Notes under the pieces: generated by a model
Told to the model about the DNA's origin: nothing
Seen by the model: the letters and a program-made list of their open reading frames with translations, nothing else
Database searches by the model: none
In this document: positions 1 to 16,377 of the stretch, piece by piece
Numbering within the stretch: the first letter of the stretch is position 1
How the letters are laid out: each line of letters begins with the position of its first letter
Virus record (IMG/VR): IMGVR_UViG_3300027973_000060
DNA length: 20,000 bases
Direction: 5' to 3' (one strand)
From: an uncultured virus (IMG/VR IMGVR_UViG_3300027973_000060)
Lineage: Duplodnaviria > Heunggongvirae > Uroviricota > Caudoviricetes
Position numbers and translations under genes: made by a program

Positions 1-111
1 ATTGCAGAAAAATTCAAGAATTTTAAGTACGTTGCATTTAGGAGAAATGGTGGGAAAATGAAAACATATAATTTTGATAGATTCACAGAACTCATGAAAG
101 TTGGTGCATAA
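1..111 (+). CDS. 3' end of an upstream phage protein (partial, ...IAEKFKNFKYVAFRRNGGKMKTYNFDRFTELMKVGA*)
   Basis: Frame 1 is open from base 1 to TAA at 109-111, which overlaps the next ATG (TAATG coupling). Confidence 0.7.
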   Translation: MAEKFKNFKYVAFRRNGGKMKTYNFDRFTELMKVGA

Positions 112-587
112 TGGGTGGATCACCCTCTATTCCGTCACCGCCTCCCCCTCCAGACCCGCGAGAGGTGGCTCGGGCTAATGCTGAAGCCTATAGGATGAAC
201 ATTGATACTTACATCGAAAAGTCTCCAGCAATGGCAGCTTTAGAAAACAAACTTCGCATTCAGTATCTACCCCAGCAACGCTCGCTAGAACGCCAATTGT
301 CAGCCTTAGATCAGCAAGCTGGCGTACAATCTGGAATGCAACTAGAGCGTCAATATGGTCCGCAGAGGACTCTGGAAGGGTTGCGCAGATCGTATGAACA
401 AAGCCCACAAGCGTATGCCCTAAACCGAGGACTAGGCGATCAAATGACTAAGCAGTTCGAACGTCTTTACGGAACTAGCCCCTATGGCTCAGTTGAGCAG
501 AATGTAGCGTTTAACCGCCAACCAGGACCAGTTGATTTTTATGGAACAGTTGGAACGAACATCAGCAACCCAGAACTAAAGGCTTAA
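111..587 (+). CDS. Putative internal virion/ejection protein (158 aa)
   Basis: The MGGSPSIPSPPPPPD N-terminus and Gln/Ala-rich helical body are typical of podovirus internal virion proteins. It is first in a run of ejection-type genes and coupled to the upstream stop. Confidence 0.65.
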   Translation: MGGSPSIPSPPPPPDPREVARANAEAYRMNIDTYIEKSPAMAALENKLRIQYLPQQRSLERQLSALDQQAGVQSGMQLERQYGPQRTLEGLRRSYEQSPQAYALNRGLGDQMTKQFERLYGTSPYGSVEQNVAFNRQPGPVDFYGTVGTNISNPELKA

Positions 588-588
588 T

Positions 589-2313
589 ATGGGGAATCAA
601 CAAAAACCAAGGCCAACAAGATACAGGATCAATAGCAATGGAGACATTGAAACAGCAGATGTAAATCAAAGCGGGATTTACAATTATGACAAATATGGAG
701 GGGAATTTCCATACACAAACATAGCTGATGTTCAGAATGAAATTTCAAGAAGGCAAAATGCCAATATTAAAAATCTTCAAGACACCTACGAAAAGCGTCT
801 TGCTGAAGTTACTAGCCAAGAAAACACCCGCAACTCTCTTGCCTCGCAAATCCAGGCATTAACTGCTGGAGGCTTGGGAATGCAAAATCCTAATGCTGGT
901 CCAGAGTTTAACCAGGCCTTATCACAACTTTCTGCTGGTCGTAATTATGGATCGTCTGACCTTGGCTCAATGCTAAACTTCCAAGTATCCGACAATCAGA
1001 TCGTTGATGATTACAATAACTCAAAGTTATCCCGCCTCAACAGCGTGATTGAGCGTGGCAACACGCAGATTGCTGGTATTACCGAAAGGCTTAACTCTGC
1101 CAACAAACTTCTTGCCGATCTTCCCGCTGGCGATGCTAGGCGTACTTCTTCAGAAGTATTCATCAAGCAACTTAGCAATGACTTAAAAAGCGTAACTAGC
1201 GCAGTTACTGACGCGCAGGATATGCAAAAGAATTTCACTCCGATTACGATGGACAGCCCAGAAGGGTTAAAAGAGATCACGGCATTTAGATCATTTGTTC
1301 AATTGCCCGAAGAACGCGCTTCTCAGCAACTTTATCAGATTGATCCGGATTCTTATCGTACCGCGGTTAGCCTGGGCCAACAGTACAGGGATATGGCTAC
1401 TCAACCGCTTGGGCCCACAACCACTCCAAAGACAGAGCAACTTCGCGCCACAATTGAAGAAGAGGCGATGAACCAGCTTCGGCTTGGATCTACGATTGGT
1501 GCCGAAGAACTTCGCGGGTACGAGCAAGCAATCCGAGGGGCTCAAACTGCCCGGGGCAATATTTTTGGCCTTGGACCAGCAGTGCAGGAGGCCGCGCAGA
1601 TTGGCGCAGCCGGGGAACAGCGCAAACTGGCTCGGTTCGGGGCTGCGCAACAGTTCCTTGGATCTGGCGAAACTACTGGCGCAGCAAGGGCTCGCGATCT
1701 TTTACTTCGTGAAGGCGTCAAGCAGAACAGGCTCGGGGCCGCGGCTGGATTCATTGCCGGAGGGCCTAGTATTGGAAACCTGGCTCAAGCAAGAACAGCA
1801 CAACAGCAGGGCGCGATGCAGGGCTATATCCAAGCGAACCAATCTCTTCCTGGTGGGTTTAATCAGCAGGCATCTACCGCTGCGCCTTTCTACCAAGCAG
1901 TTGATCAAAACATTCCTGTCGCCCTTACTCAGGCGTTTAATGATCTTTATCGCTCGCAAGCCAATTACCAGGCCAGCACATACGGAGCCCAAGTTGGGGC
2001 GCAGGCCCAGGTTGATAGCGCGAATTCATTGCCTAACTATCTTTCCGCCGCCGGAGGCATCCTTGGAAAGGTTTCTCCAGGAGGCATATTTGGTGGATCT
2101 GGTGGTGGGCCAATTTTCTGTTGGGTCGCTAGAGAAGTCTATGGAGAAGAAAATCCTAAGTGGCTTCAGTTCCGCGAGTGGATGCTAACCAAAGCGTCCG
2201 ATAATCTAAGAAACTTCTACACTGAGTATGGGGAAAGAATTGCGGAATCGATACGCAACAAACCAAAAATCAAGTCCATCATCCGCAAATGGATGGACAG
2301 CAAGATAGGATAA
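589..2313 (+). CDS. Putative DNA ejection/pilot protein with C-terminal CFI-box-CTERM-like domain (574 aa)
   Basis: Q/A/G-rich coiled-coil composition and a Gly-rich linker (GGIFGGSGGG), followed by CWVAREVYG...FREWM...FYTEYGERIA...IIRKWMD. Confidence 0.7.
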   Translation: MGNQQKPRPTRYRINSNGDIETADVNQSGIYNYDKYGGEFPYTNIADVQNEISRRQNANIKNLQDTYEKRLAEVTSQENTRNSLASQIQALTAGGLGMQNPNAGPEFNQALSQLSAGRNYGSSDLGSMLNFQVSDNQIVDDYNNSKLSRLNSVIERGNTQIAGITERLNSANKLLADLPAGDARRTSSEVFIKQLSNDLKSVTSAVTDAQDMQKNFTPITMDSPEGLKEITAFRSFVQLPEERASQQLYQIDPDSYRTAVSLGQQYRDMATQPLGPTTTPKTEQLRATIEEEAMNQLRLGSTIGAEELRGYEQAIRGAQTARGNIFGLGPAVQEAAQIGAAGEQRKLARFGAAQQFLGSGETTGAARARDLLLREGVKQNRLGAAAGFIAGGPSIGNLAQARTAQQQGAMQGYIQANQSLPGGFNQQASTAAPFYQAVDQNIPVALTQAFNDLYRSQANYQASTYGAQVGAQAQVDSANSLPNYLSAAGGILGKVSPGGIFGGSGGGPIFCWVAREVYGEENPKWLQFREWMLTKASDNLRNFYTEYGERIAESIRNKPKIKSIIRKWMDSKIG

Positions 2314-2317
2314 CTTT

Positions 2318-3283
2318 ATGGCAGGACCAAGAGCTTTATTCCCATTTCCATCTCAGGCCGAAGAATACAGAAAAGAAGATGCTCGCCAGGCGATGGAAGA
2401 TCAAGATCGCGCGCTTAGAGTTGAGATGCTCAAGCAAAAACTTTACCCCGAGCAAGAAGCAAAAAGAGTTGGTCAAGCCCTCATGGCATCGAGCGATCCT
2501 GTCGAACAGGCTGCGCTAATGAATAGGCTGGCAGAGACGACAGGAACAAGGGCAGCGCCCGGCACAAGCATCGTAGTTCCCGCCGGACTTTCAGAAGAAC
2601 TTGTCGACGCCTACGTCGATCGCCAGGTCAACAAGGTTAAGTACTACAAAGAAAAGGCGATGATGGAGCAGGACCCGGAGAAGCGAAGAATCATGATGAA
2701 CGTCGCTGACGCCGGGGAGAAAGCCCTTGTCGCCAAGGGTAAGGAGTTGACGCAGGCAGATTTTGCGTTTGAGTCAAACATCCGCGAGGCATATCGCATG
2801 GCAGACGAGCTTGAGAATACTGTAAAAAAGTACGGAAATTTTGAAACTGTTGACCCAGATGGGTCCGCAACACTGAAGCAAATTCCATACCTATTCGCAG
2901 TATCTCTAGCGAAAGTTCTTGATCCTGGATCTGTAGCAAGAGAAGGCGAAGTTGAGGCAGCCAGGAAGTTTGCCATCCCAATGGGGACAACTCCTGTATC
3001 TGTTGGATTCAACAATCCCCTCACAGGGCCAACCACGGCAACGACGCTCGCCGCGATTAAGAGCATGAGGACAAGACTGAAGGCAAGGGCCGAAGACTAC
3101 AAGAGCATTGCTGGAAGAACCGTTGAATTGCCCAAGTCGAACTTGGACGATCAATCGCAGGGCCAACAAGCCGGGCAGGCTGGGCAACAGCAGATGCCGC
3201 AACAACCCGCACAACGTCCAATGAGTCCTACCGGATTCGGCGGATACGATCCTCGCACTCGCAAGGTAATTCAAAACCGCTAG
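2318..3283 (+). CDS. Putative internal virion/ejection protein (321 aa)
   Basis: Long ORF between ejection-type genes. It has a KVLDPGSVAREGE motif resembling those in phage internal virion proteins and a Q/P-rich tail. Confidence 0.6.
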   Translation: MAGPRALFPFPSQAEEYRKEDARQAMEDQDRALRVEMLKQKLYPEQEAKRVGQALMASSDPVEQAALMNRLAETTGTRAAPGTSIVVPAGLSEELVDAYVDRQVNKVKYYKEKAMMEQDPEKRRIMMNVADAGEKALVAKGKELTQADFAFESNIREAYRMADELENTVKKYGNFETVDPDGSATLKQIPYLFAVSLAKVLDPGSVAREGEVEAARKFAIPMGTTPVSVGFNNPLTGPTTATTLAAIKSMRTRLKARAEDYKSIAGRTVELPKSNLDDQSQGQQAGQAGQQQMPQQPAQRPMSPTGFGGYDPRTRKVIQNR

Positions 3284-3289
3284 TCGGTC

Positions 3290-6200
3290 ATGGCCGACGA
3301 AATCATCCAGGATCCATTGGAGGCAGCAAATTATTTGCTGCGCCAGTACCGCGACAATCCGAATTTTGAGTTTACGCAAGAAGAAGCGTCGCTAGTTCAT
3401 AGCGCCTACGGTGGGGGAGTTTCATTTGTAGACTCTAAGCCTGTCATGGACGAGGCGTCGACCTCGTCATTCCTAAGATCTCAAGATGAATCAGATCCTT
3501 CGTTCATAGCTAGCGAAGAAGAGTTTTCGATTCTCAAGGCTACTGAGCCTGGAGCAATCAGCAGAATTGGTGCTGGAATGACCGGGGCCGCGGAGTATCT
3601 TGGCCCTGTAATCAAAGAAGGCATCCCGGAACTAATCAAAACGGCATCGATGCGCGAGCCGAGGCCGGGCGATCCTTCACTTCCAGCTACATTGCTAGAA
3701 GCCGGGGCCAGGGGAACTGTCGACCTTGGCACAATGGCAGTCGGAGCATCTAAATTTATTGAAAAGGCTCCGTTCATGGTGGCTGGAGCGCTTGGAATGC
3801 AGGACGACTACAAGTCCTACCTAAACCAAAAGACGATCGACCAAAACTACCAGATGCAGGCGATCGACAAGATGAACGCCGAAAGAGCCCAGGGCAAAAG
3901 CATTGTCGGATTGCCGGAAGGGACGTTCGCACCAAAGGCCGCGGAGGCCGCGAGCATGGTCCTAGATCCGACGCTCGCAGTTCCATTCATTGGGCCAGGA
4001 GCGAAGGCGGCAGGAATTGCCGGAAGAGGATTAGGCGCCACAACTAAAATCGCCCGGGGGATTGAGACCGCGGCCCGGGCAACAGGCGGAGCCATTGATC
4101 TTGGAGTCGAAAAGGTTGGGCAAGGTATCCAGCGCGTTCTGCCTGGCGTAACTGCGCCAAAGACTGCAGGAGCAATCGCCACAGGAGCGGCCGCAATAGG
4201 TATCCCCGGGGCATTTCCAATTGGAGCTAAGATAGCCGGGGTTAGGGCTGGAGCAGAGGTTGTGGAGCGCGGAGCCCAGGCAGTCCGGATCGCTGGAGAA
4301 GAGGCGATGACAGGACCATCCAGGATGACCGTCATGGAGCGCGTCGCGAAGAATCAGAAGAATCCCGAGTGGCTTAGAAAGGCCGCGAACACATCGATTG
4401 TATCTTCTCCGATCACGCAAGGGGCCGCGGAGCTTGGCCTGGAGACAGGCAAGGGCGCTGTCAAATCTGCGGCCGTCGGCGCAGGGTTGGGCTATGTTGC
4501 GTCTGGAGGAGAGGAAGAGGGTATCGGTGGCGGATTGGTTATTGGGAGTGGTCTTGGCACGATTGGAGGAGCGGTCAAGGGAGTCGCAGCGATCCCAGCA
4601 AAGAAGGCGCTTGCCAAGCAGGGTGACGTCAACAGACTTTTCGCAAGGCAGGCGGATCTTGGCCTAGACGTAAACAAGATTGCCGACTATGTCCGCAAGG
4701 ACAATCGCCCATTCCTAGACGCCGCGACTCTCCAGATGATGGCGCCCGACGTCCAAGTTGAATTCCACGGTCGAGACTCGTTCATGATGCCCGAAAATGC
4801 TGGGATCAACGCGGCCGGAGTTGTCAAAGCAGTTCCAGATAAGTCAGGCACGACAAGGCTCCTAGTAAACATGGACGACATGCGGTCCTCCGGGGATACG
4901 GTTAAGCATGAGATCATGCATGCCATCATGAAGTCTCCGGCAATTAATAAGGCTGAAGGTCGGATGGCAGTCATGTCAGAATATGGTGAAGAGGGCCTGC
5001 GCAGATTTGGAAATGAGTACGCCAGGAAACTTTTGGAAGGCGAGCGCCAAGGCCGGGGCACACCGACCGAGGCCGAAATAAGGGCAAAGGCAAACGAGCT
5101 CCGAGAAGGATCTCAGCGGTCCGAGCCTGGGGCCGGGGATCTTGATTGGATAGCGGACGAGGTTCTGGCAGAACAGTTTGTGGGCGAGTTCCGCGGGAAG
5201 GATTTAGATTCTCTGCGACGCAAGACCCTCCCGGGCACAGATCTGCTCTCGCTCCAGGAAGGATTCTTAGCCCCTGTTGGCAGGCTCTTGAATAAGTTTG
5301 GGATCGACACAACCGGGCCTAAGCCGACGAATATTGATACTCTATTCAAAGACAATCCTCTTGTTCCGTCTAAACAGCTTCGAGAGTTAACCTCAAGATG
5401 GTTCCGGGACCGCGACAAGTATCTTGACGGACTAGAGAAGGCAGAAAAGCAGAAGGACGTGACGCTAGTCCCGGGGCCAGGAAACAGAAACCTGGCTAAC
5501 AATCCAGCAATCCAATTTACTCGCAACAGAAAGACAAATCTTGAGGAAAACGATTTTGCGGTAAGGTTCCCGGACGGTACTGTTCGAGCCAAAGACCCGG
5601 CATCGATTCTGGCAGTTGACAAGGCCCGGGTGGCAGACGTTGCCAAAATGTACGACCCCAACGCGGTCCTGGAGCGCGGGAGCCCTGAGTTTGGCGTCAA
5701 GATTCAGTCCGATGGCAAACCATACGTCGGTGGCAATACCCTCCCGGAGGGATTCTTTAACCTCGACAGTTTTAACGATTTCACGAAGGAAGTAGCCAAG
5801 ACCCTCCAGGACAGCCGTCAGGAGGGTAAGACATATTCTGTCTGGTACCAAAAGATCGGCACAGGCGAGGATGGGAGTTGGGCTCAGTCTGTTAAGCGCG
5901 GACTAGGCAACATTAAGGTTGGACAATCCGAGATCGCGTTCTTGGGTTGGCGCCTATCCAAGGCCGGGAACATCTTGGCTCAGGCAGTGGACATATCTGC
6001 TCTGCGCGGTCGCATGCTTGATTTTGCCAGGAGCGGAAAGGGCCGGATCAATGAAGTGTGGGGTGGAGACCTGTCGTCTTACGAGAAGGACGTCATGCAG
6101 TACCTGGACAACCATGCCAACGAAAGACCAGGCGAGACAGGGATCGGCATCGATAAGCGCAACGCGATCAACTACCTATTCGGCATCACAAACATTGCCA

Positions 6201-9200
6201 ACAAAAATGCGAATCCCATGTACGTAGCCGAAGGGCGTCCCCCGGGGAGCCTGGTCAAATCCTATCGCCTGGACCGTATTGCTAACTCTCGCGATACCGG
6301 GCGTACAGGATTCTTCTTTGACTACCAGAAGCAAGCCGCGAACTTGGCGCCTGGAGACGTGTCACTCCAGAAGGCTATTCGCGACAAGATGCCAAGACTT
6401 GCCACTCCAGAGCAAGTAAAGGCAATTATTAAGCCAGGCCAGACCCGCGGGGTAAACGAGGAGGATGTTAAGTGGTCAGGAATTAATGAAGAGATTGATA
6501 GGCTTGCAAGTGAAAACGCAGGGAAAGTACCAAGAGATAAGCTGGAAGAATTCCTGGCTGGAAAGGGCAAGGTCCAGCTTGAAGAGACAAGATACGGTTC
6601 AGCAAAAGGCTCAAAAACTGCCTTAAACGAGCAGGATATTGCAAGACTGAATGAGCTTGAGGTCGCAGATTCAGCTAATCCACTGGGAGGAATGGACGAC
6701 GAGATGGGCGATGGTGCCTACGGTGAAATGATGGACTTGCAGAATCGTCGCGACAATATTTCTACATCCAGCCAACTCACAAGGATGGCAATGGCTGCGG
6801 AAGAGGAAGCAAGGGCTTTCCTAAAGAATTCTCCAACAAATCTTGGAAAAATTGGTGAAAGCAAGGTTTACGAAACTTTTGATCGCATGATGAAAAAAGC
6901 AGAGCACTTGAACGCAAGGGCAGAGCAATTTGATAGGGCATCAGTGTCAGGGAATGCGCCAAGGTTTGGTGGGTTCACAATTCCTGGCGGGAAGAATTAC
7001 AGAGAAGTTGTGCTGTCCAGGAAACAGGACCAAGGAACAAAAAGAAAAGGTGCCTACAGAATTGAATTTAAGAACGCAAAAGATGCGGATGGTTTCCTGA
7101 CAGACATAAGCGCAGCCGGATTGGATGAACTTGATTACGGAAGAATTAGTGGCGAGGACATATCAACGAATGACAGGGTCGTTGAGTTTAACGACACGGT
7201 GACACAGGAAATTGTTGACCTTGCAAGAGCATACGACGCGAAACTTCCAAATGAGTCAATTGAAAAAGCATACATTTCAAAGCATTACCCAAAGGTTACC
7301 GACTATATCGCGCACATGCGTTTGGACGAAAGGCCCGATTCTTTTGGTAGAGATGGATTATTCATTGAAGAGATTCAAAGCGATAGGCACCAGGCGGGAA
7401 GAAAGTACGGATATAAAGAGGATGATAATCTTGTAAAATTAGAAAATGAATTCAGAAAGAAGTACGGTGATCCCATTGAATTTGACAAGTTAAGCAGAGA
7501 GGATCAAACGAGATGGTACAGGGCCGAAGGAGAGAGCAAAATAGATCCGTACAAAAGCGTCCCGGACGCACCGTTCCGGAAAGATTGGCCGATTCAAATG
7601 TTCAAAAGGGCCCTGGCCGAGGCAGTTGACTCAGGGAAGAAATGGATCGGATGGACAATTGGCGCGGAACAGCAAGAGAGATATCCTGGCATGGCAGGGA
7701 GTAGCAAGATGGGAATGGCAAAGTTTTATGACGAAATGTTGCCATCCGAGATTGGCAAGTACATGAAGCAGTATGGAGCCCCTGTAGAGAAGTCATCCAT
7801 AACAAACGACCGCTACTATGTAATAACCCAGGATGGCAGGACGTTGCCAATGGATGGCGAGAAAAGCGCAATGGAATCAAGGGCGTCTAATCCTGGGTCA
7901 AGAATTGTAGAGCCAGATCAAATCCCAATGTGGAAAATTGACATTACCCCAGAGGTTTTCGCCGGGGTTCGCAAGATGCAGGAGATGGAGAAAGAGTTTT
8001 CCGGGACCGCTAAGACTGAGCCAAAGTTTACTAGCCTAATCGGTGGCGAAGAGCAGAAACAGTTTGCTCCGGCTAGCCAAGCCGAAAAGAAAGACGAAGA
8101 GTTTTGGGTTAGCCAAAGGAATCCAAAGGCAGTTAAGGCGACAGAGAATCCGCTTACCGAGAAGCTGACGATTGGCCTAGACGTTATCCTGAAGGACAAA
8201 GAACTAGCTAAAAAACAGGCGGACCTTGTTAAGAAGTACCCTGGATTTAGCCCAAAGAGCAAGACCACCGAAGGGGTTCTCGGGGAATTCGTCGATCACG
8301 TTAAGGGCAATCTTTTGTATCTTTACGACTCATTCAAACCCGAGCTTAGGGAGCAGGCCAAGAAGTGGTACGACGGAGCCAGAAAGATTTCCGAGGAGTG
8401 GTCCGGGAAGTATGGGACCGAAACTAGGCAGAATGCAGGAGTGCTCGCTGTGCTATCCCCGCAGAAGGATTGGTTTATGAACGTGTCGCTTGCGGACAGA
8501 GTAATTGACATCAACACAAACAAATCCAAAGAGGTGTTTTCTCAGGAAATGTTTAACTGGTTAAAGTCTGACCCCAAGAGGGGCATGCTAGTAAATTCGG
8601 CGAGGAAGAATCTTCTCGGCAAGCGCTACAGCGAGGTCAAGGATTCGTTCGACAAGGCTATCTTCCTGCGCGCTTGGGACGAGGTCAACAATTCTAGATC
8701 CTTCGACGTCTATAACCCAGACGGAAAGATATTAGGCAAGAAGCTCAACGATGACGGAACCGAGGGCAAGGTTGGTTGGGGGTCATTCTCGCAGATTGAG
8801 AAGGGGATTAGTATTCTTGAGAACGGAGCCAGGGAAAACATTCACAACCAGCTTGGCGAGGAACACAAGGTCAGAAACTTCTTCAACAATATCCTCCAGC
8901 CCAATTCCAAGTTCGGAGACGTTACTATTGATACGCATGCAGTCGCGGCCGGGCTACTCCGTCCCTTGTCCGGCGGGTCTACAGAGGTGCTTCATAACCT
9001 TGGCGGAGGCCCCTCCTCTAAGATAGTTGGAGCGTCTGGCACCTACGCACTATTTGCCGAGGCTTACAGAAACGCTGCGAAAGAGCGCAAAGTACTTCCC
9101 CGGGAGATGCAGAGCATTACCTGGGAGGCAATCCGGGGCCTGTTCAAGCCAACGTTCAAGGGCCAGGCCAAAAATAAAGAATTTGTCGACAGCGTCTGGA

Positions 9201-9493
9201 AGAGCTATACTAAAGGAAGGGTAAAAATAAATGAAGCAAGAAACACAATCAGCAGATTTGCAGGAGGAATTGAAGACCCTAGCTGGGCAAGACGGAGCGG
9301 TCAGGTTCCTACTGAGGGAGGGACTGCCCCTAACGCGGGAGAACTACCTAAGCGTAGCATGGCCGGACAGGACAGCGGAGGACGAACTGGACGCGGAGTT
9401 CGAGGCGCAACTGCCAGAAATGTTCAGACTCAAAACCTCGAATCAGCAGTAAAGTCTAGGCTAATTAAAAAACAACTGGAGGCCAAAAAATGA
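3290..9493 (+). CDS. Large polyvalent internal virion protein (2067 aa): Ala/Gly-rich N-terminus, HExxH metallopeptidase-like domain, EIQSD module, C-terminal HhH-GPD glycosylase-like module
   Basis: A 6.2 kb ORF. Motifs: HEIMH at 4907-4921 with downstream DEVLAE; LFIEEIQSD at about 7358-7384; WY...LSPQKDW...KVRNF...VTIDTHA...MQSITW at about 8366-9124. Confidence 0.8.
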   Translation: MADEIIQDPLEAANYLLRQYRDNPNFEFTQEEASLVHSAYGGGVSFVDSKPVMDEASTSSFLRSQDESDPSFIASEEEFSILKATEPGAISRIGAGMTGAAEYLGPVIKEGIPELIKTASMREPRPGDPSLPATLLEAGARGTVDLGTMAVGASKFIEKAPFMVAGALGMQDDYKSYLNQKTIDQNYQMQAIDKMNAERAQGKSIVGLPEGTFAPKAAEAASMVLDPTLAVPFIGPGAKAAGIAGRGLGATTKIARGIETAARATGGAIDLGVEKVGQGIQRVLPGVTAPKTAGAIATGAAAIGIPGAFPIGAKIAGVRAGAEVVERGAQAVRIAGEEAMTGPSRMTVMERVAKNQKNPEWLRKAANTSIVSSPITQGAAELGLETGKGAVKSAAVGAGLGYVASGGEEEGIGGGLVIGSGLGTIGGAVKGVAAIPAKKALAKQGDVNRLFARQADLGLDVNKIADYVRKDNRPFLDAATLQMMAPDVQVEFHGRDSFMMPENAGINAAGVVKAVPDKSGTTRLLVNMDDMRSSGDTVKHEIMHAIMKSPAINKAEGRMAVMSEYGEEGLRRFGNEYARKLLEGERQGRGTPTEAEIRAKANELREGSQRSEPGAGDLDWIADEVLAEQFVGEFRGKDLDSLRRKTLPGTDLLSLQEGFLAPVGRLLNKFGIDTTGPKPTNIDTLFKDNPLVPSKQLRELTSRWFRDRDKYLDGLEKAEKQKDVTLVPGPGNRNLANNPAIQFTRNRKTNLEENDFAVRFPDGTVRAKDPASILAVDKARVADVAKMYDPNAVLERGSPEFGVKIQSDGKPYVGGNTLPEGFFNLDSFNDFTKEVAKTLQDSRQEGKTYSVWYQKIGTGEDGSWAQSVKRGLGNIKVGQSEIAFLGWRLSKAGNILAQAVDISALRGRMLDFARSGKGRINEVWGGDLSSYEKDVMQYLDNHANERPGETGIGIDKRNAINYLFGITNIANKNANPMYVAEGRPPGSLVKSYRLDRIANSRDTGRTGFFFDYQKQAANLAPGDVSLQKAIRDKMPRLATPEQVKAIIKPGQTRGVNEEDVKWSGINEEIDRLASENAGKVPRDKLEEFLAGKGKVQLEETRYGSAKGSKTALNEQDIARLNELEVADSANPLGGMDDEMGDGAYGEMMDLQNRRDNISTSSQLTRMAMAAEEEARAFLKNSPTNLGKIGESKVYETFDRMMKKAEHLNARAEQFDRASVSGNAPRFGGFTIPGGKNYREVVLSRKQDQGTKRKGAYRIEFKNAKDADGFLTDISAAGLDELDYGRISGEDISTNDRVVEFNDTVTQEIVDLARAYDAKLPNESIEKAYISKHYPKVTDYIAHMRLDERPDSFGRDGLFIEEIQSDRHQAGRKYGYKEDDNLVKLENEFRKKYGDPIEFDKLSREDQTRWYRAEGESKIDPYKSVPDAPFRKDWPIQMFKRALAEAVDSGKKWIGWTIGAEQQERYPGMAGSSKMGMAKFYDEMLPSEIGKYMKQYGAPVEKSSITNDRYYVITQDGRTLPMDGEKSAMESRASNPGSRIVEPDQIPMWKIDITPEVFAGVRKMQEMEKEFSGTAKTEPKFTSLIGGEEQKQFAPASQAEKKDEEFWVSQRNPKAVKATENPLTEKLTIGLDVILKDKELAKKQADLVKKYPGFSPKSKTTEGVLGEFVDHVKGNLLYLYDSFKPELREQAKKWYDGARKISEEWSGKYGTETRQNAGVLAVLSPQKDWFMNVSLADRVIDINTNKSKEVFSQEMFNWLKSDPKRGMLVNSARKNLLGKRYSEVKDSFDKAIFLRAWDEVNNSRSFDVYNPDGKILGKKLNDDGTEGKVGWGSFSQIEKGISILENGARENIHNQLGEEHKVRNFFNNILQPNSKFGDVTIDTHAVAAGLLRPLSGGSTEVLHNLGGGPSSKIVGASGTYALFAEAYRNAAKERKVLPREMQSITWEAIRGLFKPTFKGQAKNKEFVDSVWKSYTKGRVKINEARNTISRFAGGIEDPSWARRSGQVPTEGGTAPNAGELPKRSMAGQDSGGRTGRGVRGATARNVQTQNLESAVKSRLIKKQLEAKK
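9231..9452 (+). CDS. Small acidic protein nested (+1 frame) in the 3' end of the giant gene (73 aa)
   Basis: SD-like AAGGAAGG at about 9213-9220 with an A-rich spacer before ATG 9231. The translation is protein-like (VRFLLREGLPLTRENYLSVAWP...ELDAEFEAQLPEMF), while the host frame becomes low-complexity G/R/T-rich over the same interval. Confidence 0.6.
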   Translation: MKQETQSADLQEELKTLAGQDGAVRFLLREGLPLTRENYLSVAWPDRTAEDELDAEFEAQLPEMFRLKTSNQQ

Positions 9494-9495
9494 CC

Positions 9496-9768
9496 TCACT
9501 CGACGTCGGTATCTCCAAACCTGGAAATAAAACCTCCGTAGGCCCCCTTGGCGTCGACAATGCTTCCATTCCTTGTGAGGCATCCAGCGTAGTTTCCGGA
9601 GGCGTCGGAGAGACTCCTGTTCCTAAAGATGGAACCACCGTATTCCCCTGTGGATGTACTGTAGGAAGTGCGGTAGACGGAACCACCGTAGTTCCCGGTT
9701 GCATCTGTGAGATCCCCGGCGAAACAGTGACCGAGTGACAAGACGACCAACAATAGGATTTTCTTCAT
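9496..9768 (-). CDS. Small exported repeat protein (90 aa); candidate superinfection-exclusion/moron gene
   Basis: Signal peptide MKKILLLVVLSLGHCFA, then four ~16-aa repeats (D/T-x-x-G-x-Y-G/A-G). It is the only convincing minus-strand gene and has its own promoter. Confidence 0.75.
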   Translation of the reverse strand: MKKILLLVVLSLGHCFAGDLTDATGNYGGSVYRTSYSTSTGEYGGSIFRNRSLSDASGNYAGCLTRNGSIVDAKGAYGGFISRFGDTDVE

Positions 9769-13822: not shown

Positions 13823-13971
13823 TCTTTGTCCAGTGGGGCGAAAGGTACTACGCGGTGACTTCAAATGGAGATATTTTTGATTCTGGCGGAAAGCTAACGA
13901 TCATCCCAGAGGGGTTAAAGAAAGCAATCAAGGAGGCAGGCATTAATGAAGAGGCAAATAGTAACAGTTAG
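13819..13971 (+). CDS. Hypothetical protein (50 aa, MIFVQWGERYYAV...)
   Basis: ATGA coupling and upstream GAGAGGAAG; overlaps the start of the next gene. Confidence 0.55.
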   Translation: MIFVQWGERYYAVTSNGDIFDSGGKLTIIPEGLKKAIKEAGINEEANSNS

Positions 13972-14590
13972 TTGCCAGTTGCCGGAATGGTTTGAGAAGC
14001 ATTCCCTGCCAAGGATGGAAGAATCTTCTAAGCGTTGGGACGCTAATCTTGTGGTCATCAAGCCGGAGAACCCGATCGGACTGCTAGCCAAGATGTCGTT
14101 AGTCGACGCGGTGCAGAATTCTGACAGGACTCTGTTCGTTGACAGCGATGTATTGATTTCGCGCGAGTGTGTAAACCCATTCGAGACTTTCCCTCACGGA
14201 CACTTCTACGCTTGTGCCGACGCTCCTCACGGAGACCAGTTGCATTGGGGCCGGGCGAACGAGATGATCTTATCCCAGGCCATGCTCGGATCGGTCAAGT
14301 GGACTCAAGGCTATTTCAATACCGGGGTCATGGTTTGCGACAAGCAACATGCAGGCGCCTGGGCAAATTTCGTGTACGCACCGTTCGCTTTCCCTGAGCA
14401 GACTTTCACAAACTACCGGGCCAGAATGCTCGGTTACTCTATCCGTTTCCTAAGCTGGGAATGGAACGCGATGGAGATCAATACTCCAAAGGACAAGAAA
14501 CAGTCGGACGGATTCATGCCACACGCAGCCGGGATCTACGGAGATGCCAGGGCAAAGTGGATTGAGGAAATGGACAAGGTATTACCATGA
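13946..14590 (+). CDS. Glycosyltransferase, GT-A fold (GT8-like)
   Basis: DxD motif (FVDSDVLI), YFNTGVMV, EQTFTN, EWN and a C-terminal His (PHAAG); SD AAGGAGG. Confidence 0.8.
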   Translation: MKRQIVTVSCQLPEWFEKHSLPRMEESSKRWDANLVVIKPENPIGLLAKMSLVDAVQNSDRTLFVDSDVLISRECVNPFETFPHGHFYACADAPHGDQLHWGRANEMILSQAMLGSVKWTQGYFNTGVMVCDKQHAGAWANFVYAPFAFPEQTFTNYRARMLGYSIRFLSWEWNAMEINTPKDKKQSDGFMPHAAGIYGDARAKWIEEMDKVLP

Positions 14591-15651
14591 GAATATTGAC
14601 CCTAAAAGATCCCATGATGTTGGACGATCGGCTCCACCATCCGCACGATTCAATCGTAGTCCCGGATGAAGTCCGCGGGATACCCGGCACACATGCAGAC
14701 GCGTACACGATACCGTACAGGGTTGGTTGTGCCTCTGGAGGATATGCTTGCCTGTACCGGGGCGGGGCGATTGGAGATCAGTTCATCGCCATGGGCATTG
14801 CCAGGGCAATGCAACACTACGAGGGAGACGGAAGGATCGATGTCTACGTTCCCCAACGTCATCTTGGATTGTGGGAAGGATTTGCAGGAGTCAGGGCGCT
14901 ACCATTAGCACCCACAATCTCCACCTGGAAGTCGTACAAAGGCCACGTCTGTCTTGACGATATCTTGTCGAAGACCGCACACCTAGACGGAAACGTGTAT
15001 GACTACGTCTACAGATCCTGGGGCGTAGAGGTTGACGATCAGTTTAAGAAGCCATACGCAAAGCTGATGGAAAAGGATCAGCATGAACTTGCTACGGTTG
15101 GATTTGACGTTGCCGGACCATTCCTGCTCTATTCGATCAGTGGATCTAGCCTGTGGAAGAGCTACCCAACATACGAGGCAGGACTATTCATCAAGTCGTT
15201 CCTAAAGGAGAATAAGGATTGGCACGTTGTAGCAGTAGGCCACGACGATCCTCCCCTATCCATCACGCACAACAGGCTAATCAATCTCCAGGGAAGACTG
15301 CGCAACGTTAGGTCTCTGCTACACCTTGCGGCTCGATGCGACATGGCTGTTTGCCCAGAGTCGGCAGTGATGCACATGACCGCGGTATTCGACGCGCCAA
15401 CCGTAGGGCTGTACGGACCTTACGGACCTGAGCACACATCGAAGTACTACAAATATGTGAAGCCAATCTTCCCTAAAGATGTTTGTCCCAACGCCCCATG
15501 CTCGGTGTACGAGCAACCCAAGGACAAATGCAAAGATGCAGTCAACTCGATAAAAGGAGACCCCAAATGGTGCAACGTTCTAAGGTCAATCAAGCCAGAA
15601 GATATTCTGGCAAAGACAAAAGAAATCCAAGCAAACCTAAAGAAAATCTAA
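14587..15651 (+). CDS. Glycosyltransferase family 9-like (heptosyltransferase, GT-B fold)
   Basis: GAIGD, WKSYP, INLQGRL, ESAVMHMTAVFDAPTVGLYGP, CPNAPC and C...IKPEDI motifs; ATGA coupling. Confidence 0.85.
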   Translation: MRILTLKDPMMLDDRLHHPHDSIVVPDEVRGIPGTHADAYTIPYRVGCASGGYACLYRGGAIGDQFIAMGIARAMQHYEGDGRIDVYVPQRHLGLWEGFAGVRALPLAPTISTWKSYKGHVCLDDILSKTAHLDGNVYDYVYRSWGVEVDDQFKKPYAKLMEKDQHELATVGFDVAGPFLLYSISGSSLWKSYPTYEAGLFIKSFLKENKDWHVVAVGHDDPPLSITHNRLINLQGRLRNVRSLLHLAARCDMAVCPESAVMHMTAVFDAPTVGLYGPYGPEHTSKYYKYVKPIFPKDVCPNAPCSVYEQPKDKCKDAVNSIKGDPKWCNVLRSIKPEDILAKTKEIQANLKKI

Positions 15652-15821
15652 TCAGAATTGTTTCTGAGAAGAAAGTTGTCTGCTATGAGTTGGGCCTGGA
15701 CGTGGACAAGGACGTCTACGAGGCAATCGCCGAGGCTGGGCGCGTTCATATTGCTAACGACAAGGAAGCACTATTCCAGTACGCACTAAAGACCGCGCTC
15801 AAGGAGATGGCAAATGAATAA
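15567..15821 (+). CDS. Hypothetical protein (84 aa) starting inside the GT9-like gene
   Basis: AAGGAG SD about 7 nt before ATG 15567, in frame with the tracked ORF 15483-15821; protein-like C-terminal half. Confidence 0.6.
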   Translation: MVQRSKVNQARRYSGKDKRNPSKPKENLIRIVSEKKVVCYELGLDVDKDVYEAIAEAGRVHIANDKEALFQYALKTALKEMANE

Positions 15822-16377
15822 CTTCAAACAAAAGATTCTTACGGCAGTGTGTGAGCCGGACGTGTTGACGCAGGGCCAGTGCAATATGATCCGTGATGAT
15901 GCCGAGGTCATAGGCATGAAAAGATCTCACGTCATGAAGAAGGATGGCACGACTAGGTCTTCCTACACCAGGACATGTTCATCGTGCTGGGTACCGTTCG
16001 CGGAACACTACAAGTGGCTATACGAAGTGGTGAGGAATGTCGCTAGCGACCTAAACGAAGAGCACTACAAGTTTGACATCACTGGCATTCAGCAACTGCA
16101 GATCCTGCGCTACAGGCCGGGTCAGTTCTTCCTTCCACACTTCGACTGCTTCGACGGTAGCGACCGCAAGCTAACGATGGTGATCAACCTATCAGATCCA
16201 TCAGAGTTCCTGGGCGGAGGGCTTAGGGTTGAGTGCGACTTGCATAACGGAAAAGATGTAAAGAAGCGTGGATCGGCAACGATGTTCCCCGCCTACATCA
16301 GGCACCAAGCACTGCCAGTGTTCTTTGGCTCTAGGTGGGTGCTGGTCGCCTGGCTTACAGGAGGACAGTGGCGATGA
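15814..16377 (+). CDS. 2OG-Fe(II) oxygenase (prolyl-4-hydroxylase/PiuC-like)
   Basis: HxD (HFD), RKLTMVINLS, GGGL, distal His (IRHQ) and RWVLVAWL. Confidence 0.9.
   Translation: MNNFKQKILTAVCEPDVLTQGQCNMIRDDAEVIGMKRSHVMKKDGTTRSSYTRTCSSCWVPFAEHYKWLYEVVRNVASDLNEEHYKFDITGIQQLQILRYRPGQFFLPHFDCFDGSDRKLTMVINLSDPSEFLGGGLRVECDLHNGKDVKKRGSATMFPAYIRHQALPVFFGSRWVLVAWLTGGQWR

Follow-up and report, generated by a model that had tools for sequence, protein, structure and literature searches.

A predicted OGG-type DNA glycosylase domain in a phage ejection-cluster protein and a conserved gene overprinted behind it

Equivalent pairs of residues line the pockets of the 8-oxoguanine (8-oxoG) glycosylases OGG1, OGG2, and AGOG. 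As given in the accessible portions of the published accounts, these are Gln315/Phe319 in hOGG1, Asp194/Trp198 in OGG2, and Asp218/Trp222 in AGOG (PMC3397491), and the key residues of Pab-AGOG are K142, F146, D174, D208, and W212 (PMC9638937). The Dag proteins cluster near AGOG, and Dag1, with residues K118, D132, D184, and W188, cuts phage DNA containing 7-deazaguanine (bioRxiv 2025.10.29.685425). Here, we examine a locus in 20,000 nucleotides of DNA from an uncultured virus of the Caudoviricetes (IMG/VR IMGVR_UViG_3300027973_000060). This whole stretch, hereafter the window, forms the final 20 kb of a virus record 66,080 bp long and encodes a 2067-amino acid (aa) protein with a C-terminal DUF7178 domain, predicted to be a DNA glycosylase and apurinic/apyrimidinic (AP) lyase. 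In the same open reading frame (ORF), we find a conserved gene for a 73-aa protein overprinted behind the domain. This partner gene does not appear in an earlier note on the same DNA and is newly found here.

Predicted fold and pocket of the DUF7178 domain

DUF7178 (PF23802) is the sole Pfam match in the 2067-aa protein (matched over two stretches with E = 1e-27 and 97.7 bits, the curated cut-off being 27), which bears out the DUF7178 likeness proposed in the earlier note. Among PHROGs, phrog_3842 matches the domain at E = 7.5e-26 and phrog_2878 matches it weakly; outside the domain, the protein has no Pfam or PHROG family match. The motifs quoted in the earlier note all occur, in the same order, in the plus-strand ORF at 3290-9493. 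That note had placed the domain at 8270..9230; its position at the end of the protein stands, but the conserved unit is larger (about 8108-9286). We delimited this unit (~aa 1607-1999) from 52 aligned sequences, namely, the window and 51 of 80 loci. The 80 are the best of 549 viral loci for this clade. Both the size and the range of the family should be read as minimum values. Of four relatives compared, three (L003, L004, and L006) give a ratio of non-synonymous to synonymous substitution rates (dN/dS) of 0.042-0.047 for the domain, or about 0.045, while dS is saturated against the fourth. Domains of the window's type carry an insertion of ~90 aa and two extra C-terminal helices, both missing from stand-alone members of the family.

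AlphaFold models of the window domain (predicted local distance difference test, pLDDT, 90; predicted template modelling score, pTM, 0.89) and of a compact stand-alone homologue (pLDDT 91, pTM 0.86) are all-helical and two-lobed. Compared with 48,161 Protein Data Bank (PDB) representatives, they retrieve HhH-GPD-fold proteins exclusively at ranks 1-20 and 1-23, respectively. The two predicted models thus leave little doubt about an HhH-GPD fold, and the AlphaFold check that the earlier note had called for comes out in favor of its proposal. The best match of the window model is the 8-oxoG glycosylase OGG2 (3n0u; Z 8.7, root mean square deviation 4.0, 185 residues aligned), followed by queuine salvage enzymes (Z 8.2 and 8.0), AGOG (6.9), and endonuclease III (6.4 and 5.8). 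For the compact model, OGG2 scores Z 11.7 (root mean square deviation 3.6, 167 residues aligned), ahead of MagIII (9.0), AGOG (8.3), and OGG1 (7.9). Foldseek against the PDB gives OGG2/AGOG as the top five for the compact model (probability 0.82-0.89, E 0.3-0.5) and AGOG as the top row, below significance, for the window model. A search of a viral structure library returned uncharacterized phage proteins.

The kinship with endonuclease III (Nth) that the earlier note had suggested does not hold up, since the nearest relatives are instead OGG2, AGOG, and OGG1, together with the queuine salvage enzyme. We reject an Nth identity on three grounds: the lower structural rank, the OGG-type pocket, and the lack of an Fe-S motif. 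There is no Cys in the last 467 residues, whereas the compared Nth sequences have the C-terminal four-Cys motif. The Pfam HhH-GPD family does not match the domain. The phage amino-acid:DNA transferase PUGT was likewise rejected as an identity, with a structural match of only Z 3.7-4.0.

Five putative active-site residues (Lys1860, Phe1864, Asp1881, Gln1941, and Trp1945) are conserved in 120/120 virion-type homologues, 119/119 stand-alone homologues, and 17/17 divergent sequences. To compare them with known enzymes, 15 OGG2-family genes were fetched, of which 13 were aligned and tied to PDB numbering. A profile comparison between the 17-sequence divergent family and the OGG2 family pairs the Lys, Asp, Tyr, Gln/Asp, and Trp positions (probability 55%, pairwise E 1e-4); the same profile reaches 21% against a two-sequence Nth alignment. 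The Asp of VTIDTHA, which the earlier note had read as the catalytic residue, is the invariant Asp1881 and aligns with that of OGG2. Two positions further on, the 17 divergent sequences have His or Trp, as do the OGGs (PMC3397491, accessible portion). By sequence register, the domain also has the arrangement of an OGG-type pocket: a guanine-edge residue and an aromatic at i and i+4, with Lys+4 as the second face.

This invariance makes it highly likely that the domain is an active Lys/Asp glycosylase/AP lyase. The catalytic Lys is also kept, and the enzyme is therefore predicted to be bifunctional. The pocket suggests a non-canonical guanine as the probable substrate. If, as is presumed, many cultured carriers have unmodified DNA, the substrate cannot be plain guanine.

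A 73-aa gene overprinted behind the domain

Over its final 68 codons, the big ORF has a dS of just 0.05-0.10, compared with >1 in the domain, because a +1-frame ORF overlaps them (Table 1). Between the window and a relative (L007), 18.7 of 33 synonymous sites but only 3.3 of 108 non-synonymous sites have changed in the small frame, and the pattern is reversed in the host frame. Substitutions fall mainly at third positions of the small frame in 13/13 pairs. Start signals are also conserved: 82 of 84 distinct copies begin with ATG, and the ribosome-site energy is -8.6 for small-gene copies versus -3.3 for 877 control ATGs, with a small bias from choosing the best ATG per copy.

We show that the small gene is linked to the domain. 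A motif search placed it behind the domain in 76/100 loci, with further ones recognized by eye. Using a profile built from 49 copies, we detected it in the window and in 79/80 IMG/VR loci, the remaining locus being cut off (39 of the 80 are in the profile, and L001 and L002 are identical to the window). The profile also finds it in 10/21 GTDB loci (9 of them in the profile) and in 1/4 cultured fused loci. Behind stand-alone domains, it was found in 0/15 loci from 14 phages. Iterating the profile added only two further loci, both with weak candidates (E 0.14 and 0.49). In locus L115, a +1-frame ORF behind the domain (3821-4087) resembles a divergent partner gene at E 0.49 only.

Scanning in the reverse direction, the small protein matched 143 stretches, 132 of which were confirmed. 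Among the best 80, which lie partly on the same contigs as the domain loci, the domain is directly upstream in 78 and the other 2 are cut off. Of these 80, 77 are in the +1 frame and 68 are nested entirely, some in ORFs that run on for ~1000 codons. The gene extends beyond the host stop codon in 10/78 loci. Selection, start signals, and linkage together make it all but certain that the 73-aa ORF is a real gene. Its protein has no Pfam or PHROG match at E ≤ 0.01, and the Atlas gives only unnamed clusters below 0.9; judged by these collections, it belongs to no known family.

A complex prediction pairs the small protein with the domain at a score of 0.88, against 0.33 for the best control. The score mark is reached by 116/157 solved pairs and 2/215 mismatched pairs, counts that are roughly valid here, where our own alignments were used. 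The runs share at least 87% of contacts, with a partner pLDDT of at least 78. Predicted contacts include Lys1860, Asp1881-Thr1882, Pro1724-Gln1725, residues 1830-1837, the loop 1895-1906, and residues 1761-1790 of the insertion. Net charge is -7 for the small protein and +12 for the domain. Neither the insertion nor the small gene occurs in stand-alone members. The modeled interface suggests that the small protein is probably an active-site inhibitor of the domain.

Table 1. Features of the locus, with positions in the window
Feature	Position	Strand	Remarks
2067-aa modular protein	3290..9493	+	Last and largest of four genes of an inferred ejection (internal virion) cluster
DUF7178 domain, aa ~1607-1999	8108..9286	+	Predicted HhH-GPD (OGG-like) DNA glycosylase/AP lyase
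Insertion of about 90 aa (limits approximate)	8522..8773	+	Much of the predicted small-protein binding surface; absent from stand-alone members
Trp1693-Tyr1694	8366..8371	+	Invariant, family-specific
Ser-Pro-Gln 1723-1725	8456..8464	+	Likely DNA-wedge loop; similar motif in OGG2 family; predicted small-protein contact
Lys1860	8867..8869	+	Predicted catalytic nucleophile; aligned to OGG2 catalytic Lys
Phe1864 (Lys+4)	8879..8881	+	Predicted base-stacking residue, as AGOG Phe146
Asp1881-Thr-His1883	8930..8938	+	GPD catalytic Asp motif; aligned to OGG2 Asp
Gln1941 and Trp1945 (i, i+4)	9110..9124	+	Predicted guanine-edge reader and stacking Trp
Shine-Dalgarno-like site of 73-aa gene	9213..9222	+	Duplex energy -8.3 kcal/mol
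Overprinted 73-aa acidic gene	9231..9452	+	Net charge -7; +1 frame, nested in big ORF; predicted cognate inhibitor
Three upstream genes (158, 574, 321 aa)	111..3283	+	Inferred smaller ejection proteins; follow a weak head-closure-like gene; no family matches

Virion setting and candidate roles

Genes of the phage run in the order terminase, an unassigned 635-aa gene (from its position, the portal gene), major head protein, tail-like genes, a gene with a weak match to head closure, the 158-, 574-, 321-, and 2067-aa genes, and an endolysin-like gene. The region after head-closure and tail genes is where podophage ejection proteins are encoded. At one ~660-aa-type locus that we scanned (L009), genes of PHROG "internal virion protein" families flank the DUF7178 gene on both sides. 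Across the best 80 of the 549 viral loci, the ORF carries the domain close to its C-terminal end (three ORFs are truncated where the contig stops). We scanned 21 fused proteins, from 15 of 21 GTDB loci and six others: ART-PolyVal accompanies the domain in 6 (2 below cut-off), and LPD22, LPD38, LPD3, RadC, GGDEF, InPase, 2H, or a methyltransferase occurs in single cases. Such domains are typical of polyvalent proteins (PMC5512222). As a large multidomain protein among virion genes, the window protein resembles phage polyvalent and ejection proteins. Gene position and partner domains thus suggest that the large protein is likely packaged and injected with the genome, and the delivery with the virion assumed in the earlier note is supported by that gene position.

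A stand-alone version of ~200 aa occurs in 124 cultured phage records, 60 of them listed. In GenBank, several of these genes bear the putative labels "glycosylase" or "N-glycosylase/DNA lyase". In 11/14 cultured phages examined, the gene is at most about 8 kb away from an end of the genome or immediately precedes the RNA polymerase gene, places that we take, from the layouts of these phages, to be the earliest expressed; one is a few genes away from an Ocr-like gene. These positions suggest that the activity is wanted at entry, and two routes, virion fusion and stand-alone terminal genes, seem to deliver it then.

Our preferred explanation, which we hold tentatively and at slightly less than an even chance, is an injected OGG-type glycosylase/AP lyase that excises 8-oxoG from the phage's own incoming genome, with the small protein as its brake. 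The large protein would be made late and bound by the small protein, translated from inside the same message. Covering the active site, the small protein would keep lesions and abasic sites from being nicked while the phage DNA replicates in the producer cell and after it is packed into the capsid, and nicks in packaged DNA would be unsealable. The brake would be shed as the protein unfolds for ejection, and the freed enzyme would act at once on a non-canonical guanine, most likely 8-oxoG, before replication. Stand-alone copies made early would never be kept alongside DNA, and a brake would be superfluous for them. We favor 8-oxoG because OGG2 is the nearest solved relative, because virion oxidation touches every infection, and because a substrate in the phage's own DNA would best explain a dedicated brake, being its easiest explanation. 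We rank this repair of oxidized guanine slightly above the two roles put forward in the earlier note, namely, attack on host or competitor DNA and removal of defense-imposed lesions.

Several observations weigh against an injected 8-oxoG repair enzyme. We found no invariant counterpart, among the aligned homologues, of the N7-H sensor that makes OGGs specific for 8-oxoG. The strictly conserved C-terminal Lys that serves OGG2 as sensor (Trp+9) is Pro in the window protein, where the chain continues, and Asp in 110/120 homologues; the carboxylate at this position is a candidate 8-oxoG sensor but possibly a mere helix cap. AGOG has a conserved Gln for N7-H and a Lys at Lys+7, and the latter is Asn in the window protein and variable in stand-alone forms. 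An OGG2-like end at Trp+8 to +10 occurs in 10/14 cultured stand-alone proteins versus only 3/116 metagenomic ones. Structural evidence has its own limits: the queuine salvage enzymes tie for first with OGG2 in the window-model ranking, Z values below about 13 can be common among helical folds, Foldseek gave nothing in the PDB at E ≤ 0.001 for either model, and searches of PDB sequences with the domain and with its family profile (hidden Markov model) found nothing relevant at E ≤ 0.001. Profile comparisons with two other alignments were weak (probability 0.2% and 6.7%). The window's own four cluster proteins match no "internal virion" family, the partner domains in relatives are conflict enzymes, and the small gene was undetected in 11/21 GTDB loci and 3/4 cultured fused loci. 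Hosts usually have Fpg against 8-oxoG. Finally, a Lys/Asp/Asp/Trp pocket also serves Dag1 on 7-deazaguanine (bioRxiv 2025.10.29.685425, accessible portion).

A second explanation, possible but doubtful, is that the phage injects the domain as a Dag-like weapon. By excising bases of the 7-deazaguanine type, it would destroy the DNA of modified phages infecting the same cell or of hosts with modified guanine, and the small protein would be an immunity factor that curbs stray AP-lyase activity. The published residues of Dag1, which cuts 7-deazaguanine phage DNA, match those of the domain, apart from Gln in place of an Asp in the pocket. The position of Dags near AGOG, the queuine salvage enzymes at structural ranks 2-3, and the failure to find an 8-oxoG sensor all agree with it, as does the company of ART-PolyVal, RadC, and LPD domains. 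Dag structures are absent from the PDB matches, and the likeness is drawn from the published residues, which show a similar spacing. A weapon of this kind requires carriers without the modification, and QueC and FolE were each found in 0/66 carrier records (18 cultured ones and 48 from the 80 IMG/VR loci). This result has low power, because phages seldom carry such genes and many records are fragments, and DpdA was not searched for. In addition, an unmodified phage would lack any substrate of its own, which makes a near-obligate inhibitor harder to explain. Widespread phages that inject a base-excision weapon and carry an immunity gene overprinted inside the effector would constitute a phage effector-immunity module, a conclusion to which we give a similarly modest chance.

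We consider it unlikely that the domain has another function, either as a module that binds DNA or shields AP sites or as a QNG1-like nucleotide hydrolase, or that the small protein is a chaperone, an activator, or a tail made by frameshifting. The fold is common to QNG1 and, weakly, to PUGT (Z 3.7-4.0), complex models give a binding mode and not an effect, and frameshifting may play a part. Against these functions stand the invariance of the full catalytic set, the predicted interface over the catalytic residues, and the small gene's own ATG and ribosome site, together with its run past the host stop codon in 10/78 loci.

Counter-defense repair is improbable. In this reading, the domain would clear incoming phage DNA of a guanine lesion or adduct put there by a host defense. 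The guanine pocket agrees with it, as do the two routes to entry (fusion to a virion protein, and terminal genes, one of them near an Ocr-like gene), and a substrate in the phage's own DNA would suit an inhibitor. However, no matching host system was identified, and the guanine adduct of DarT1, which sits on N2, the edge read by a Gln315-type residue, should not fit.

Other observations concern the surrounding genes and relatives. The record consists of two related phage genomes of ~39 kb each, placed head to tail and 69-93% identical in nucleotide sequence, each with the large protein. It is likely an assembly chimera; a gene duplication as the origin of the two copies was rejected accordingly. 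The middle module of the large protein (aa ~1020-1570; window 6350-8000) is wholly lost in L004, where the DUF7178 domain is retained, and the 2067-aa protein is thus modular. In L006, the module has only 46% identity, and across the compared loci it is swappable. It has no Pfam or PHROG match, the Atlas gives unnamed clusters at 0.84-0.86, below 0.9, and its acidic Glu-x-Gln motif is one that we take to recall restriction-fold nucleases. Directly after the big ORF, an antisense gene of 90 aa (9496-9768, minus strand), with a signal-peptide or lipoprotein-like start and no Pfam match, is a possible superinfection-exclusion moron. GT8-like, GT9-like, and 2OG-Fe(II) oxygenase genes stand consecutively among replication genes (13946-16377), possibly for surface or base modification. 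At 27785-28453 of the record lies a Mom-like DNA modification gene (phrog_1384, E 2e-50), with which the phage may modify its own DNA.

Among relatives, Virus Rctr197k (L083, 837-6959) encodes a protein of 2040 aa in which two compact copies of DUF7178 occur together with two InPase domains and a 2H domain; the small partner gene was not detected there. Nor was it detected in Roseobacter phage CRP-738 (L082, 8819-11326), where an insertion-type domain follows a methyltransferase-like stretch and the gene lies between the portal and coat genes, outside the ejection cluster. The 198-aa stand-alone member of Tunturi_3 (L104, 4959-5555) is annotated as "portal protein", likely a mis-annotation.

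Comparison with known systems

GenBank labels had already guessed at a glycosylase function. The literature searched showed us neither the OGG-type pocket nor the fusion to a virion protein nor, above all, the overprinted partner, and in full texts, most subscription papers being beyond reach, we found no paper on DUF7178, on a virion OGG, or on the small gene. A common phage family (549 viral loci for the clade and 124 cultured records for the stand-alone form) gains a testable function, and an OGG-like enzyme would be added to the injected cargo of phage proteins. The small gene, conserved, of no known family, and nested in a longer ORF, is of a kind that gene callers would likely miss. If repair is the true role, the system would show how virions cope with guanine oxidation. 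If attack is, it would be a new phage-versus-phage weapon and a phage mirror of the bacterial Dag defense, and the small protein would be the first inhibitor of an HhH-GPD glycosylase found in the literature searched. Separate leads are the 73-aa protein as an inhibitor of the OGG fold and nested +1-frame genes behind other polyvalent domains.

The phage polyvalent proteins (Iyer et al. 2017, PMC5512222) resemble the window protein as giant modular proteins encoded next to virion genes, and relatives carry ART-PolyVal, LPD22/38/3, RadC, GGDEF, InPase, and 2H; the window protein itself has none of the polyvalent Pfam domains listed in the accessible portion of that source. The word "glycosylase" is absent from its main text, which, without the supplement, is the part covered here. 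Ugi, p56, and SAUGI, as far as the accessible accounts go, are small acidic proteins that occupy the DNA-binding site of a glycosylase, and they target uracil-DNA glycosylase, mostly that of the host. In contrast, the predicted target of the 73-aa protein is an HhH-GPD enzyme of the phage itself; the protein has no family match and is overprinted in the gene of that enzyme.

The domain belongs to DUF7178 and is predicted to be an HhH-GPD superfamily protein, and it lacks defining features of Nth, OGG2, and AGOG. Compared with Pfam DUF7178/phrog_3842, which is the same family, the window form adds the insertion, the fusion, and the partner gene. OGG2 (PF22175; T. maritima 3n0u, M. jannaschii 3knt) is the best structural match, with the catalytic Lys, Asp, Tyr, and the i, i+4 pair with Trp aligned. 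Unlike OGG2, to which it is about 12% identical, the domain has Gln for Asp194, Phe for His at Lys+4, and no C-terminal Lys sensor, and it has the invariant Trp-Tyr, the 90-aa insertion, the virion fusion, and the partner gene. It shares a Phe/Trp sandwich with AGOG (F146/W212), a Gln with OGG1 (hOGG1 Gln315), and His/Trp at Asp+2 with both, but lacks the Lys+7 Lys of AGOG and the N-terminal domain of OGG1. With the anti-phage glycosylases Dag1 and Dag2 (bioRxiv 10.1101/2025.10.29.685425), compared by published residues alone and from the accessible portion of the source, it would share the HhH fold, a Lys-Asp-(Asp/Gln)-Trp pocket, and a modified-guanine target in a conflict setting. Those are bacterial genes of integrons or defense islands that block guanine-modified phages, whereas the window is a phage structural module, and its domain is phage-encoded, virion-fused, and accompanied by a cognate partner. 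The models suggest that the domain would work like an OGG or a Dag enzyme.

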